From: Nitrosopumilus sp.
GTDB taxonomy: Archaea; Thermoproteota; Nitrososphaeria; Nitrososphaerales; Nitrosopumilaceae
Assembly: GCA_965238275.1 (NCBI GenBank)
Contig: OZ250186.1
Span: 1,696,001 to 1,760,000 of the forward strand
Direction: 5' to 3'
DNA: 64,000 nucleotides
Part shown: piece by piece, positions 25,872 to 30,863 of the stretch
Numbering within the stretch: position 1 is the stretch's first letter
How the letters are laid out: every line of letters begins with the position of its first letter
The notes under the pieces: model-generated
Told to the model about the DNA's origin: nothing
The model's input: the letters and a program-made list of their open reading frames with translations, nothing else
The model's database searches: none
Program-made: the position numbers and the translations under genes

Positions 25872-28064
25872 ATGGTCAAGTTCAAGTCCACCGGGGAAGT
25901 TCTTAAGATCATCAAAAACAAGGACCAGATCAGGAACTTTGGGGTAATAGCCCACGTGGATCACGGCAAGACCACCATGAGCGACAGCCTTTTGGCATAC
26001 TCTGGGATAATAGCGCCCTCTGCTGCCGGAAAGGCGCTTGCGATGGACTTTGACAAGGAGGAGCAGCAGAGGGGAATCACGATATACCAGGCAAACGTCA
26101 CGCTGCACTTTTCCCAGGAGGACAGGGAATACGTGATTAACATGGTAGACACCCCCGGGCACGTGGACTTTAGCGGAAGGGTCATTCGGAGCCTCAGGGC
26201 AATCGACGGGGCAGTCGTGGTGTGCGACGCAGTCGAGGGGATAATGACCCAGACTGAGACTGTGACCAGGATGGCCCTTGAGGAGCGGGTCAAGCCGGTG
26301 CTCTTCATAAACAAGGTGGACCGCCTCATAAAGGAGCTCAGGCTCACCCCCGAAAAGATGCAGCAGCAGCTGGTCGATGTCGTCTCAAACTTCAACCAGC
26401 TTATCGATACATATGCAGAACCCGAGTACAGGGAGAAGTGGAAGGTCGCCATCCAGGACGCCAGCGTGACGTTTGGCTCTGCCAAGGACAGGTGGGCCAT
26501 CAACATTGATCTTATGAAGAAGCGGGGGATCACCTTCAAGGATGTCATAGACGCCTACGAGAACGGGACGGTCCCAGACCTGGTGGAGAAGGCCCCCCTG
26601 GCTGATGCCGTACTGGGAATGGTCGTAAAGCACCACCCCGCGCCGCACGAGGCGGTAAAGTACAGGATTCCCCAGATATGGAAGGGGGATCTCGAGTCGG
26701 ACATCGGAAAGGCGCTTCTTTCATGCAGCGACGAGGGGCCGACCATAATGATGATAGTCAACATGGTGCTGGACCCTGCCGCGGGTCCTGTCGCAATCGG
26801 CAGGCTGTTTTCTGGCACCATCCGGGACGGCCAGACGATCAACATAATCGACGAGAAGCGCGAGGGGCGAATCCAGTCTGTAAACTTTTTCATGGGAAAC
26901 CAGAGGGAGCAGGTGGGCCAGCTTGGCGCCGGAAACATCCCCGCGCTGCTCGGGCTGACCGAAGCCCGGGCCGGCAACACGATATCTTCAGTCAAGGGCA
27001 TTCCGATGTTCGAGGGGGTAAAGTACGTCTCAGAACCAGTAGTCCAGGTGGCAGTCGAGCCAAAACACCCCAAGGACCTGCCCAAGCTGGTGGAGGTGCT
27101 GCGGCAGCTGACCATAGAGGATCCCAACCTGGTGGTAAAGATAGATGAGGAGAGCGGCGAAACCATAGTGGCAGGCATGGGGGTGCTGCACCTGGACGTG
27201 GCGACGCACCGGATCCAGGACGCCAAGGTGCCCATAGTCACCTCGGAGCCGCTGATCAACTACAGGGAGACTGTCAAGGCCTCATGCGAGCCTGTAATGG
27301 CAAAGTCGCCCAACAGGCACAACAAGATCTTCATGAGAGTCGAGCCCCTCGAGCCTGAGATTGCACACATGCTCAGGACCGGCGAGATAAGCGATCTCAA
27401 GGACAAGCAGATAGTCTCCGACCTGCTAAAGGGAGCCGGATGGGACACTGACACCATCAAGAGGGTGATGAGGTTTGACTCTCGCGGCAACGTCCTGATA
27501 AACGGGACCAAGGGTGTCCAGTTCGTCCAGGAATCCACCGACTCTATAAACTCCGGGTTTGACGACGTAATGAAGGAGGGCCCCCTGTGCAGGGAGCAGA
27601 TGAGGGGCTGCAAGTTCATCTTTACCCATTTCGTTCCGCACGAGGACACCGCCCACAGGGGACTCTCCCAGCTGGGCCCTGCATCCCGCAGGGCGTGCAT
27701 GGGGGCGCTGCTCACCGCGGGAACCGCCGTGCTCGAGCCGATGCTGGCAGTGGAGGTGCGCGTCCCGACTGACCTGGTCGGAAACGTGGCGACTGTCCTG
27801 TCAGGCAAGCGCGGCAAGGTTCTTGACATGGTCCAAAAGGGCGCATCAAGCATCATTACAGGCGAGATTCCTGCATCCGAAACCTTTACGCTATCTGACG
27901 AGATGAGGGGCCAGACTGCGGGGCGCGCGACATGGAACACGTCGTTCAAGGCGTGGACTGAGATTCCAAAGTCCCTGCTGCAGACGGCAATCTCTGACAT
28001 CAGAAAGCGCAAGGGGCTTGCGCCCAGCCCGCCTGTAGTAGGCGAGTTCATCGACAGGGAATAA
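25872..28064 (+). CDS. fusA: Translation elongation factor aEF-2
   Basis: 'AHVDHGKTT', 'RGITI', 'DTPGHVDF', 'NKVD', diphthamide loop 'HEDTAHRG'. Confidence 0.99.
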   Translation: MVKFKSTGEVLKIIKNKDQIRNFGVIAHVDHGKTTMSDSLLAYSGIIAPSAAGKALAMDFDKEEQQRGITIYQANVTLHFSQEDREYVINMVDTPGHVDFSGRVIRSLRAIDGAVVVCDAVEGIMTQTETVTRMALEERVKPVLFINKVDRLIKELRLTPEKMQQQLVDVVSNFNQLIDTYAEPEYREKWKVAIQDASVTFGSAKDRWAINIDLMKKRGITFKDVIDAYENGTVPDLVEKAPLADAVLGMVVKHHPAPHEAVKYRIPQIWKGDLESDIGKALLSCSDEGPTIMMIVNMVLDPAAGPVAIGRLFSGTIRDGQTINIIDEKREGRIQSVNFFMGNQREQVGQLGAGNIPALLGLTEARAGNTISSVKGIPMFEGVKYVSEPVVQVAVEPKHPKDLPKLVEVLRQLTIEDPNLVVKIDEESGETIVAGMGVLHLDVATHRIQDAKVPIVTSEPLINYRETVKASCEPVMAKSPNRHNKIFMRVEPLEPEIAHMLRTGEISDLKDKQIVSDLLKGAGWDTDTIKRVMRFDSRGNVLINGTKGVQFVQESTDSINSGFDDVMKEGPLCREQMRGCKFIFTHFVPHEDTAHRGLSQLGPASRRACMGALLTAGTAVLEPMLAVEVRVPTDLVGNVATVLSGKRGKVLDMVQKGASSIITGEIPASETFTLSDEMRGQTAGRATWNTSFKAWTEIPKSLLQTAISDIRKRKGLAPSPPVVGEFIDRE

Positions 28065-28104
28065 TAGGGTCCGCCTCCCCACCCCTCCCGAATACACCAC
28101 CACT

Positions 28105-28458
28105 CTAGTTTGCCTTCTGCCGTGCCAAAAGAAGATTGACCTTCTTTAAGACATCATCAACAATGTGACTGGCGGCATGGCACCTGAAACTGGCATTTCG
28201 TGCTCGCCAGTCTAGGTTCTTTATATGATCTGCCAGAACCACACCAGATACAGGACTTGAGAGTGGAAGATGTACCTCAAACGGATATCCCTTGATCTGG
28301 GACGTAATGGGACAAAAGAGTGCCAAACCGGTCCACCTTGTTATAAGAACACGGACTCAAGACCAAGGCTGGGCGACGACCCGCCTGCTCGTGTCCAGAC
28401 TGAGGCGTAAAATCCAGCCAGACAATATCTCCTCTTTCGGGGAGATATTCCGGTTCTA
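28105..28458 (-). pseudogene. mazF: MazF/PemK toxin, decapitated by an insertion and frameshifted
   Basis: 'EYLPERGDIVWLDFTPQSGHEQAGRRPALVLSP', then one extra base near 28334, then 'TGLALFCPITSQIKGYPFEV...VLADHIKNLDWRAR'. Confidence 0.9.
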
Positions 28459-30124
28459 TAGTGAAAAGCGAAAGTTCGTGCAATTTTTTGAGATCCTTTT
28501 TAAGAAAATAAATCCCAACTACAGGTATGATTGTCAGTAAAATCATCAAGATAACACAATCTCGGGAACTGTCACGCAAGATCGTGAAATGCTCCCGGGA
28601 AACAGACATCATTTACGACATGACAATCATGATGAAACTTGCACACTCACGGATCACACAGTTTGATGTCAACAACCTGATAACAGGATGGCGCAGGGAA
28701 TTCGGCCTGACCAACAGCGTCCGCATGCATGAGGCCGCCTCAAAACAGGCTTTCCAGGCGGCAGTCAAATTCCGCAAGGCAAACCGGCTCAAGCACAACA
28801 AGCGCATCTGGCGCAAGAAGCAGATCAAGCTGGGGAAAAAGAAGACGTACAAGCACAATCGGTGGACCGAGCCGTCCAGCCTGATGAGGCGCGGCAGGAA
28901 AACAACCAGGCTGCGCTCGCTGAATTCACGCGCAAAGCCAAAACTGCGAGACAGTGGAGCGGTATTTCTGCCCGGACTCGGGGAAGCAAGGCCACGCACG
29001 AAGGTTCCAGAAGGCAGGCTCGTGTCATTCCAGATGATTGACACCACAGGCAAGGTCACGCGTAAGACCAAGGATGGTGATCGCGAATTCAAACTGCATT
29101 TGCAGATAGAAGTCCCAGACCCCGAACCCGCGACAGGCGGTGGCGGCGGCGGATGCAAGGCAGGGCTGGATCTTGGAGTCAGGCACCTTGCGGCAGTCGC
29201 AGACGAGCATGGGAACGAAAAACTGCACAATGTCCCCGGAGGCTGCAAGAGGCATGACGGCGACAGGATTGATCAGCTGAAATCACTTAGATCAAGATGC
29301 CATGCAGGCTCCAGAAGATGGAAAGAGATCGGCCGCAGGATAACGCATGAATTGAAAAAGATATCAAACAGGCAAAAACACAACGAGGCCGACATTGCCA
29401 GGCGGATAACAAAAGGACTGTCCGTATTGTTCTTGGAAGATCTGGATTTGACCAGGATGAGGCGATCCTGCGGGGCGGCTTCAAAGACGGGGTTGAACCG
29501 CGAGATGGCCTATTCCAGAATGGGCGAGTTCAGGATCCAGCTTGAATGGCAGATGAAAAAGAAAGGCGGAATTTCAAGACGCGTGGAACACGCACATACA
29601 AGCCAGAGGTGCGCTGCCTGCGGGGTAGTGGACAAGAAATCCAGGAACGGCGAATCATTTGTCTGCGTCTCATGCGGATGGTGCCACCATGCCGACAAGA
29701 ACGCGGCAAAAAACATTTTGGATAATGACTGTCTCCATACGGAGGAGACTGGCGGCCAAGCCCACGGGAATCGTGGAGGCACCATTGCGAGGTGTCGAGG
29801 TCGTCACAAGGCGCGAGGATCACGGATCGGATGGTTCTGGAATTCTCGCTCATAAATTTTTGATTTTCTGGTGCGATGCAGCTCGAGATGTGTGTTTATG
29901 TTCTTCATTGGAATCCAAATCAAACTGGGCATCGTCTGCATCTTGGTGCGTTATATACCAGCAATGAAAAACATATTCGCTCATAAATTTTTGATGCAAC
30001 AGCCGTCTCAGGTCGGCTTGGATCCGACAACGACGACAATATTGGAAGGTCTGACAGAGCGCCGGAAAGAGCATCAGGACACGCTACAGAGAGATCTGTT
30101 TGCACGAACTTTCGCTCGCCGCTA
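28459..30124 (+). mobile_element. Non-autonomous TIR-bounded element carrying only tnpB (IS630/Tc1-mariner-like ends, TA duplication)
   Basis: TIRs TAGTGAAAAGCGAAAGTTCGTGCAA / TAGCGGCGAGCGAAAGTTCGTGCAA (21/25, 17-bp perfect core); TA at 28457-58 and 30125-26; removing it restores the mazE stop and mazF start. Confidence 0.88.
28527..29855 (+). CDS. tnpB: TnpB/Cas12f-like RNA-guided endonuclease
   Basis: RuvC-I 'GLDLGV', RuvC-II 'LFLEDL', zinc ribbon 'TSQRCAACG...CVSCG', RuvC-III 'ADKNAAKNI'. Confidence 0.92.
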   Translation: MIVSKIIKITQSRELSRKIVKCSRETDIIYDMTIMMKLAHSRITQFDVNNLITGWRREFGLTNSVRMHEAASKQAFQAAVKFRKANRLKHNKRIWRKKQIKLGKKKTYKHNRWTEPSSLMRRGRKTTRLRSLNSRAKPKLRDSGAVFLPGLGEARPRTKVPEGRLVSFQMIDTTGKVTRKTKDGDREFKLHLQIEVPDPEPATGGGGGGCKAGLDLGVRHLAAVADEHGNEKLHNVPGGCKRHDGDRIDQLKSLRSRCHAGSRRWKEIGRRITHELKKISNRQKHNEADIARRITKGLSVLFLEDLDLTRMRRSCGAASKTGLNREMAYSRMGEFRIQLEWQMKKKGGISRRVEHAHTSQRCAACGVVDKKSRNGESFVCVSCGWCHHADKNAAKNILDNDCLHTEETGGQAHGNRGGTIARCRGRHKARGSRIGWFWNSRS

Positions 30125-30273
30125 TACCATTCTTCGTTGCCTTGTGATGGGCCGGTATCCTGTTCAGGGTGGATGTTGTCAGGTTCTATACTGGTCAAAA
30201 TGTCTGCCAAGTCATTTATTTTCTGGTGCGATGCAGCTCGAGATGTGTGTTTATGTTCTTCATTGGAATCCAA
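30125..30273 (-). pseudogene. mazE: MazE-like antitoxin C-terminal region; stop codon split by the insertion
   Basis: 'DLADILTSIEPDNIHPEQDTGPSQGNEEW' matches the MazE C-terminal pattern LxxLLxxITPxNxHxExDxGxxxGxExW. No AbrB N-domain visible. Confidence 0.75.
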
Positions 30274-30632
30274 ATCAAACTGGGCATCGTCTGCATCTGC
30301 TGGTGCGTTATATCTTTTACATGTCAGATCTTACATATATGCATAATTCGTGTTGGTATGGCGTTGTCCATACCTTCGTCAGAAAACCACTGATAATCTT
30401 AAAGATCATTAGCATCATGCATCGGAAAGGTTTTGGATCACCGATTCTGCCCTGCCCGGAATCCCTGCGGAGGCCGTGGCTTGCATGACGGTTCCCCCCT
30501 TGCCAGAAGCTCCAGTGTGTACCCCGGCAGGAGTTCACCTTCCATGGTACATGCAGGGAGGGTAGGGGGCCGCAGCAGCGCCATACCACGCACCCCCAGG
30601 TTATTTATTCAGGTACATCCGGTTACTACACC

Positions 30633-30863
30633 ATGGGACTGCTGTACACAAAGTTTTACATGGATTTTGAGAGCGAGGAATGGGACCAAATCTCCAACAA
30701 CCCCCTAATATTCCAGACAGTCAAGGACGGCGTGTCCCTTGAGATCGAGGACACGTCCCACAAGTCATACCGGCTCAACTTCAAAAAGGGCGGGCGGCTC
30801 AATATGTTTCGGGTCACCGGCAAGTTCAGGCTTACGTGGGATGACGGGGATGTCCTGGAATGA
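30633..30863 (+). CDS. Conserved hypothetical protein
   Basis: Clean 76-aa ORF overlapping the next gene (ATGA). Confidence 0.75.
   Translation: MGLLYTKFYMDFESEEWDQISNNPLIFQTVKDGVSLEIEDTSHKSYRLNFKKGGRLNMFRVTGKFRLTWDDGDVLE

Follow-up and report, generated by a model that had tools for sequence, protein, structure and literature searches.

A probable non-autonomous, TnpB-only insertion sequence framed by IS630-type inverted repeats in a Nitrosopumilus genome

The usual explanation of TnpB is that it helps transposons of the scarless peel-and-paste (Y1) kind, or of the serine-recombinase kind, to home. How a tnpB gene comes to lie between terminal inverted repeats flanked by TA, and what might move it, is the question raised by a segment of a Nitrosopumilus sp. 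genome at positions 28459 to 30124 of a 64,000-nucleotide stretch (the window, by which the whole of this stretch is meant; positions 1,696,001 to 1,760,000 of a single-contig genome, here G000, of 2,216,668 bp with 52.7% G+C and no N, 99.92% complete). The segment probably represents a damaged copy of an insertion sequence (IS) that is non-autonomous, encodes TnpB only and is framed by terminal inverted repeats of the IS630 family. Its parts, in window coordinates, are as follows.

28457–28458, no strand: left TA copy of the target duplication, preceded by C at 28456.
28459–28483, plus strand: left terminal inverted repeat (LE), TAGTGAAAAGCGAAAGTTCGTGCAA, identical at 19/25 positions to the 3′ end and at 17/25 to the 5′ end of a co-resident IS630 element described below.
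28527–29855, plus strand: tnpB, 442 aa here and the only long open reading frame (ORF); RuvC and zinc ribbon intact, C-terminus altered and cut by an insert.
30100–30124, minus strand: right terminal inverted repeat (RE), minus-strand reading TAGCGGCGAGCGAAAGTTCGTGCAA, identical at 21/25 positions to the 3′ end of the same IS630 element.
30125–30126, no strand: right TA copy of the duplication, which forms the first two bases of the standard-ORF stop codon in 12/22 copies of the element.

An inverted-repeat search of window 27800–30800 returned three inverted pairs, the longest of which has its arms at 28457–28483 and 30100–30126 (27 nt including the TA, 85% complementary); read directly, LE and RE are identical at 21/25 positions, share a perfect core of 17 nt and have TA on both sides. 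The ends are not a product of chance, because blastn of the element against its own genome gave about 22 full-length copies (80–99% identity) with different flanks, in addition to fragments, and 22 copies were tabulated for their ends and flanks. The repeat search, the ORF and Pfam thus bear out a preliminary description of this locus, made from its letters, which had reported 25-bp inverted repeats with TA flanks around one TnpB gene, and the other copies at different sites that it had suggested seeking with the repeat core do exist. The length of 1,666 bp that it gave is correct for the window copy but not for the family, in which the standard length is 1,511–1,514 bp; the window copy carries a 165-bp insert. 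Over the whole genome 51 end cores form 25 neighbouring inward-facing pairs, of which 17 span 1,490–1,666 bp, one (copy c19) spans 7,382 bp and the remaining seven join unrelated neighbours at distances above 11 kb. None of the 25 pairs is shorter than 1,490 bp, that is, there is no short copy made of inverted repeats only, and the TnpB of this family was not found without these ends; the preliminary description had named common repeat-only copies, with the same tnpB lying elsewhere without repeats, as the pattern that would speak against it, and the genome shows the reverse.

The 7,382-bp pair was considered as a composite transposon carrying TnpB and a DDE transposase and was rejected, as c19 (locus L025, G000:C1:883121-891502) is a copy split by a nested 5.9-kb insertion with 58-bp inverted repeats of its own (L025 1395–1452 and 7203–7260). 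Several ORFs lie in this insertion, one of them for a DDE_3 protein of 400 aa, and the insertion is in turn nested with further repeats. Copies c09 (2146756–2148266) and c14 (828591–830104) have the outer 14 nt of the left end replaced by an identical sequence that is repeated five to six times in the genome; this is probably either the same other IS at the same position or a single event that was duplicated later. The genome is very rich in IS for its size: its 34 DDE_3 matches fall into several subfamilies of IS630, and of its 34 matches to the TnpB zinc ribbon about 24 belong to the family described here and about ten to other TnpB families; around eight other TnpB loci of the genome no convincing inverted ends were seen in a crude seed-based scan, which is no proof of absence.

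The junctions define what is inserted. Nineteen of the 22 copies have TA on both sides and one (c20) has TG on both sides, and in the remaining two the tip of LE has been displaced by a nested insertion with the TA kept at the right end. Copies c07 and c19 are surrounded by repeated DNA, which provides paralogous empty sites: for each copy there are two paralogues in which the flanks adjoin, separated by just 2 nt (TG for c07, AA for c19). These empty sites and the TG/TG copy prove a 2-bp target duplication, and because the empty sites hold exactly 2 nt the inserted unit is TAG...CTA plus the 2-bp duplication. An IS605-like reading of the junctions (target CTATA, no duplication) is ruled out by empty sites that hold 2 nt and not 4, as is an element that owns both TAs without any duplication. 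A serine-recombinase crossover was also considered and is ruled out by the lack of Resolvase matches (see below) and by copies with TG/TG and AA/AA; the duplicated dinucleotide varies with the target and therefore reflects a staggered cut rather than a fixed crossover core. Beyond the dinucleotide the two sides are not alike: the base before the left TA is C in 19/19 scorable copies of the genome (c05 likewise on inspection) and in 8/8 TnpB elements of sister genomes, and the base after the right TA in the 22 copies is G in nine, C in nine, A in three and T in one.

A profile census of the complete genome, in which the positive controls worked, found no match to PF01797 (Y1_Tnp), none to PF00239 (Resolvase) and 34 to PF13358 (DDE_3). 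There were likewise no Y1 and no Resolvase matches in five of five TnpB-bearing relatives (six of six genomes when G000 is included). When the genome was scanned for 25-mers with no more than four mismatches to either end of the element, the hits were the copies of the family, two solo left ends and a single further site, which is the 3′ end of an IS630 element of 1,092 bp at genome positions 1873255–1874346. This element is intact and single-copy in G000, has TA flanks and contains an ORF of 354 codons, the product of which scores 175 bits against NCBIfam transpos_IS630 (cut-off 100) and has Pfam helix-turn-helix (HTH) domains as well as DDE_3. Its 3′ end agrees with the right end of the TnpB element at 21/25 positions and with the left end at 19/25, its own two ends being only 19/25 alike, and the other IS630 ends compared are 15–17/25 identical to the ends of the TnpB element. 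The 354-codon ORF terminates inside the 3′ repeat of its own element (..CKNF*), the corresponding in-frame residues of the TnpB ORF being ..CTNF..

The same IS630 element is abundant in a sister genome, G296 (94 matches at E≤1e-20), so that its target can be read there: C precedes the duplicated dinucleotide at 10/10 of the 5′ ends and 25/29 of the 3′ ends, and the dinucleotide is TA at 35/39 ends, with one copy AA/AA. A CTAG target with TA duplicated is classical IS630 behaviour. The idea that the invariant left C of the TnpB element is the imprint of a target-adjacent motif (TAM) of its nuclease was dropped on this evidence; because the autonomous IS630 element shares the C (35/39 ends), the left C needs no explanation by TnpB. 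The IS630 transposase with matching ends that the preliminary description had recommended looking for is present (ends identical at 19–21/25), and the proposal made there that such a transposase moves the element in trans has gained good support, from the ends, the TA duplication, the lack of Y1 and serine transposases beside 34 DDE_3 matches, the C-TA target and the lack of copies made of inverted repeats only.

The 1,092-bp element (L024, G000:C1:1873200-1874370) sits in a (GTA)n microsatellite, in which many C-TA-C/G-TA-G sites are on offer, and 254 bp upstream of it, at 1873001, there is a piece of a related end. The two kinds of element show inverse abundance, with 94 matches of the IS630 type and one degraded TnpB element in G296, and one IS630 copy and about 22 TnpB elements in G000; this may reflect either competition for transposase or different histories.

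The protein itself is a TnpB by profile scores above the curated cut-offs. The window ORF matches Pfam Cas12f1-like_TNB (E 2.2e-16) and OrfB_IS605 (E 3.6e-11), PF07282 and PF01385 are above cut-off in both the window copy and standard copies, and NCBIfam guided_TnpB gives 125.9 bits (cut-off 100). The RuvC motifs GLDLG, LEDL and HADKNAA and a CxxC...CxxC zinc ribbon align with those of solved TnpBs, the four-cysteine ribbon lying between RuvC-II and RuvC-III and the D-E-D triad of RuvC being present; in an alignment of 14 sequences D216, C363, C366, C381 and C384 do not vary at all and D391 hardly does. An AlphaFold2 model made from this alignment has a mean predicted local distance difference test score (pLDDT) of 77.5 and is confident for residues 1–403, with residues 404–482 below 50, and a Foldseek search with the model placed ISDra2 TnpB (8h1j, E 2.8e-17) first, followed by another TnpB and Cas12f, with mimivirus Fanzor2 eleventh. 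The motifs were rightly described at the outset; the length of 442 aa is that of a truncated form and not the normal one. The standard ORF starts at nt 69 of the element and runs for 481–482 codons to the last base of it, the last codon being CTA, and in 14 of the 20 copies examined (c18 and c19, with nested insertions, were left out of this survey) the frame is open to the last base over 474–492 codons. The next codon consists of the duplicated TA and the first base of the flank and is a stop in 12/22 copies (TAG in nine, TAA in three); where the duplication does not supply a stop the ORF reads on into the flank, for example to 503 aa in c02. The C-terminal tail, residues 404–482, is coded by DNA whose nucleotide conservation exceeds the average of the coding region.

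This conserved stretch coincides with a predicted structured RNA.

29735–30124, plus strand: omegaRNA-like structured region (the last ~240 nt of standard copies), from RNAalifold with coordinates converted from c02 positions.

RNAalifold, applied to an alignment of the 3′-terminal 250 nt of 14 elements (three genomes), gave 56 pairs in 11 helices. Cells of the alignment are paired in 98.9% of cases compared with 35–47% in slid controls, and 16 of the 56 pairs have changed on both sides compared with one to four in slid controls; neither figure, nor the covariation score, was reached in any of 500 shuffles, although it should be noted that the sequences are related, so that the shuffle figures are not probabilities and it is the slid controls that carry weight. 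Several invariant G-U pairs are compatible only with the sense strand of tnpB. The last helix pairs GAAAG with CTTTC in the inner half of the right inverted repeat, so RE (30100–30124) doubles as the 3′ strand of this helix and as the final codons of the standard ORF. The alignment strongly supports the prediction that the last ~240 nt fold, on the sense strand, into a conserved and covarying RNA resembling an omegaRNA scaffold, and this structure lends support to the term RNA-guided in the preliminary description. Metatranscriptome contigs from two libraries of one study cover the element, and one of them runs from the ORF through a standard GAACAATTCGA and the right end into 230 nt of the flank of another copy, which is a weak hint of transcription through the right end.

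The same architecture recurs in sister genomes. G017, of the same genus, has TnpB-only elements of 1,479–1,481 bp with 55–57% aa identity to the window family, ends TACTGACGCGCAAAAGTTCCTGCAC and TACCGACGCGCAAAAGTTTTTGCAG, TA flanks and a C before the left TA in 6/6 cases. This layout is shared by a further, third subfamily of G017, at 49% aa identity, and by a degraded G296 copy at 74%. It is therefore constant across three genomes, down to 49–57% aa identity, and the ends of the sister TnpB elements are 20–21/25 identical to IS630 ends of the same genome or of the window genome. No composite element carrying both TnpB and an IS630 DDE transposase was present in the three genomes examined. Among 301 genomes sampled from the class, 21 match this TnpB at E≤1e-10 and only G000, G017 and G296 contain the close family (at least 49% aa identity), and a search of 5.8 billion proteins gave about 25 clusters at 46% identity or more and then a gap down to 34% or less. 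A second TnpB-only family, at 33–39% aa identity, was noticed in G227, a genome from a different genus within this archaeal family; the ends of its members read GGGAATTAYATACAAAAGTACA and have TA on their outer side, and the 39 end matches are mostly paired about 1.45 kb apart (for example L032 1005–2434; also L030, L034 and L035). One end pair of 641 bp in G227 may be a deletion derivative. G227 also has no Y1 or serine transposase matches.

These results suggest how the element might be propagated. The DDE transposase of the 1,092-bp IS630 element, or a close relative of it, would bind the ends in trans and carry the element to (C)TA sites by cut-and-paste; transcription through the right end would give an RNA that gains the flanking DNA as its guide; the TAM would end in the C of the left flank with the TA, ahead of the right flank, by analogy with Fanzors as one review presents them (PMC13565253); and TnpB with this RNA would cut the emptied donor site, so that recombination with the sister copy restores the element. 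Cutting of the donor site followed by restoration has been described for IS200/IS605 TnpB (bioRxiv 10.1101/2023.03.14.532601). Several points weigh against this scheme. There is a single copy of the candidate partner, with ends no more than 19–21/25 identical to those of the TnpB element, and the link between the two is drawn from sequence comparison; contigs from X1 and X2 show occupied junctions only, and contigs cannot show absence. On the right side G follows the TA in 9/22 copies (12/30 when the sister genomes are included) compared with 25/29 in the autonomous IS630 element (Fisher P of 0.001 and 0.0004 respectively), so that simple use of the same transposase does not account for the relaxation. 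The ends of the RNA, its guide and the TAM are predictions, and in Rfam, searched at E≤1, neither a standard nor a sister copy had a match. Carry-over of DNA may account for the RNA-library contigs, the neighbouring EF-2 gene being at zero depth in these libraries. Finally, homing after excision by a DDE transposase is an extrapolation from work on IS200/IS605 and from reviews of Fanzors.

It is unlikely, although it is the best placed of the alternatives, that the element is moved in trans by some other DDE transposase, either of another IS630 subfamily or of a partner since lost from the genome: the 34 DDE_3 matches fall into several subfamilies, the named partner has one copy beside about 22 TnpB copies, the partner-rich G296 has no more than one degraded TnpB copy and the right-side target preference differs, whereas the 25-mer scan led, outside the family and the solo left ends, to the 3′ end of the named element alone and the other IS630 ends compared reach only 15–17/25. 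That TnpB is now domesticated or regulatory and no longer a homing nuclease, its copies spreading as passengers, is improbable; inactivated and repurposed TnpBs are described in PMC10691335 and the nuclease activity of this family is a prediction from its motifs, yet the family and its relatives retain the catalytic D, E and D together with all four cysteines of the zinc ribbon, covariation shows the RNA scaffold to be constrained, and a high copy number at 97–98% identity points to recent mobility and not to a fixed host gene. The remaining alternative, a tnpB unit of IS200/IS605 or IS607 type with its own ends nested in an older, short IS630 miniature inverted-repeat transposable element, is largely refuted and can be given hardly any probability, for although most TnpBs in the literature are carried by IS200/IS605 or IS607 units and the nearest named NCBIfam subtype is IS607_TnpB (91 bits, far under the cut-off of 350), none of the 25 end pairs is under 1,490 bp, an ORF that begins 68 nt inside the left end and reaches the last base together with an RNA that uses the right end leaves no space for inner ends, three genomes share the architecture down to 49–57% aa identity, six of six genomes have no Y1 or serine recombinase match, and the empty sites hold 2 nt and not a 4–5-nt target without duplication.

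The window copy has suffered damage of its own, at these positions.

29844–30008, plus strand: patchwork insert of 165 bp replacing the 11 nt GAACAATTCGA, from the repeat search and comparison of copies.
30215–30313, plus strand: source of a ~97-bp copy inside the element (99% over 84 nt), 91–189 bp beyond the right end.

Element positions 1386–1550 of the window copy correspond to 11–26 nt in 23 of 24 3′ regions (exactly GAACAATTCGA in 16 of these 23), and 165 bp at this position are found in the window copy only (1/24). The insert is genuine: in the contigs of an independent run, X1, its bin has a depth of 24.7, compared with about 25 in the single-copy flanks and several hundred over the repeated element. 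It is composed of 19 nt of the end of IS-B (another IS630-family element, ~1,185 bp, at least 11 copies), the ~97-bp copy of window 30215–30313, and TA with ~56 nt of a diverged IS-B-like end. Two TCGCTCATAAATTTTTGAT copies around the 97-bp copy were considered as an array resembling repeats and spacers, and this was ruled out as they are part of the IS-B end. Since no TA is present at the insertion point, this was not an ordinary IS630 insertion; the insert resembles a fossil IS-B junction at the TA of 30311–30313 that has been copied into the element, perhaps as filler DNA in break repair. It takes the place of the 3′ arm of helix 7, and an extra base near 29789–29790, relative to the other copies, shifts the frame ahead of it, so that the 165-bp insert and the 1-nt insertion have cost the window copy a scaffold helix and the normal C-terminus.

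The element interrupts a toxin gene.

28105–28456, minus strand: body of mazF (PemK family), matching PemK profile positions 1–35 and 38–108 on two frames and sister MazF in tblastn.
30127–30273, minus strand: 49-codon ORF upstream of mazF, the stop of which is restored only by removing the element and one TA.

The start codon of mazF (30130–30128) lies to the right of the element and was severed from the body by the insertion, and the gene is also frameshifted near 28330–28338. The boundaries had been supported in the preliminary description by a mazE–mazF junction that reappears on removal of the element and one TA. This reconstruction agrees with the 2-bp duplication, and its mazF half stands, as the restored N-terminus MVEPEYLPERGD matches sister MazF from residue 2; the ORF taken there as mazE has 49 codons and no Pfam family and is, from its position, a candidate for the antitoxin. 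The paralogous empty sites are the better proof of the boundaries. In the closest sister genome the whole mazEF stretch between EF-2 and the next gene is lacking. The EF-2 gene of the window, which ends at 28064, is of archaeal type, and the genome has one archaeal amoA (386 bits).

How the combination arose is a matter for a more tentative suggestion. It is possible, although the odds do not favour it, that a thaumarchaeal module of TnpB and omegaRNA entered an IS630 backbone in an event separate from the one behind the published IS630-linked branch of bacteria and giant viruses, an independent capture of the sort that the preliminary description had raised, and that the two systems have since become interlocked: the right repeat would serve as transposase site, last helix strand and last codons of tnpB, the TA duplication as stop and C-TA as TAM, and the strict left C with the relaxed right base would be the footprint of TnpB-dependent retention and not of the transposase. 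If this were true these archaea, with the G227 family, would be a natural model for obligate mobile element-guided activity (OMEGA) nucleases adapting to DDE transposons, the supposed step to Fanzors. The system is in any case compact, with no TnpA of either kind, a recently active high-copy TnpB family, a candidate helper, empty sites and sister families for covariation, and it raises the questions of how an RNA-guided nuclease serves a DDE transposon that duplicates TA and whether the TAM can be read from the duplicated target.

Among known systems, IS200/IS605 elements have no inverted ends and make no duplication, insert 3′ of a fixed 4–5-nt target and require the Y1 TnpA. Their IS1341 group resembles the present element in carrying tnpB only, in the omegaRNA-like 3′ structure and in being present in multiple copies, but the latter has inverted ends, a 2-bp duplication and a genome without a Y1 gene. 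IS607 provides the nearest named TnpB subtype by NCBIfam, and a fixed junction dinucleotide could mimic its crossover site; here, however, there is no serine recombinase in six of six genomes and the dinucleotide varies (TG/TG in c20, AA/AA in a copy of the helper). With IS630/Tc1-mariner elements the TnpB element shares the 25-bp inverted repeats, the TA duplication, the C-TA side of a C-TA(-G) target and an ORF that enters the 3′ repeat, and it differs in encoding no DDE transposase and in the relaxed right-flank G (9/22 compared with 25/29); tnpB being its only gene, it is non-autonomous at best and not a member of IS630 in the strict sense.

TnpBs with IS630-type ends are already known, if rare, and the family described here establishes no new principle. 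Altae-Tran et al. (2023, PNAS; PMC10691335) describe six branches of TnpB associated with DDE transposases, each of them with terminal inverted repeats; DDE-6, a large branch, has an IS630 transposase with a separate HTH protein, symmetrical ends and members in giant viruses. They also describe solo TnpBs bounded by nearly identical ends and presumed to be moved in trans. The present family has in common with DDE-6 and the solo TnpBs the symmetrical inverted ends of IS630 type, a TnpB 3′ end less than 250 bp from the transposon end and the proposed movement in trans, whereas TnpB is co-encoded with DDE and HTH proteins in DDE-6 and is served here by a plain 1,092-bp IS630 helper without TnpB in an ammonia-oxidising archaeal host. 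Among the papers ranked highest in a literature search none joined TnpB with thaumarchaeal names, which is a weak negative as the search matched loosely. What is added here is an archaeal, high-copy, strictly TnpB-only family with proven empty sites and, in the same genome, a plain IS630 helper; the family's ORF and RNA scaffold both enter the inverted repeat, its stop is supplied by the duplication, and its target is asymmetric between left and right.

The review cited above repeats the findings of Altae-Tran et al. and calls the pairing of TnpB with DDE cut-and-paste transposition rare in prokaryotes, asking why (PMC13565253). The closest parallel lies in eukaryotic Fanzor1, which in Mariner/Tc1 and other DDE transposons likewise rides cut-and-paste elements, non-autonomous ones included, together with its guide RNA (PMC10530073; PMC13565253). 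In that review the 5′ duplication of Fanzors is read as part of the TAM (PMC13565253), and the invariant C-TA seen here would be consistent with such a TAM. The present family differs from Fanzor1 in its prokaryotic host and in its compact, TnpB-sized protein, for which Foldseek ranks bacterial TnpB first and mimivirus Fanzor2 well behind, and it places such TnpB/IS630 hybrids among the mobile elements of ammonia-oxidising archaea.

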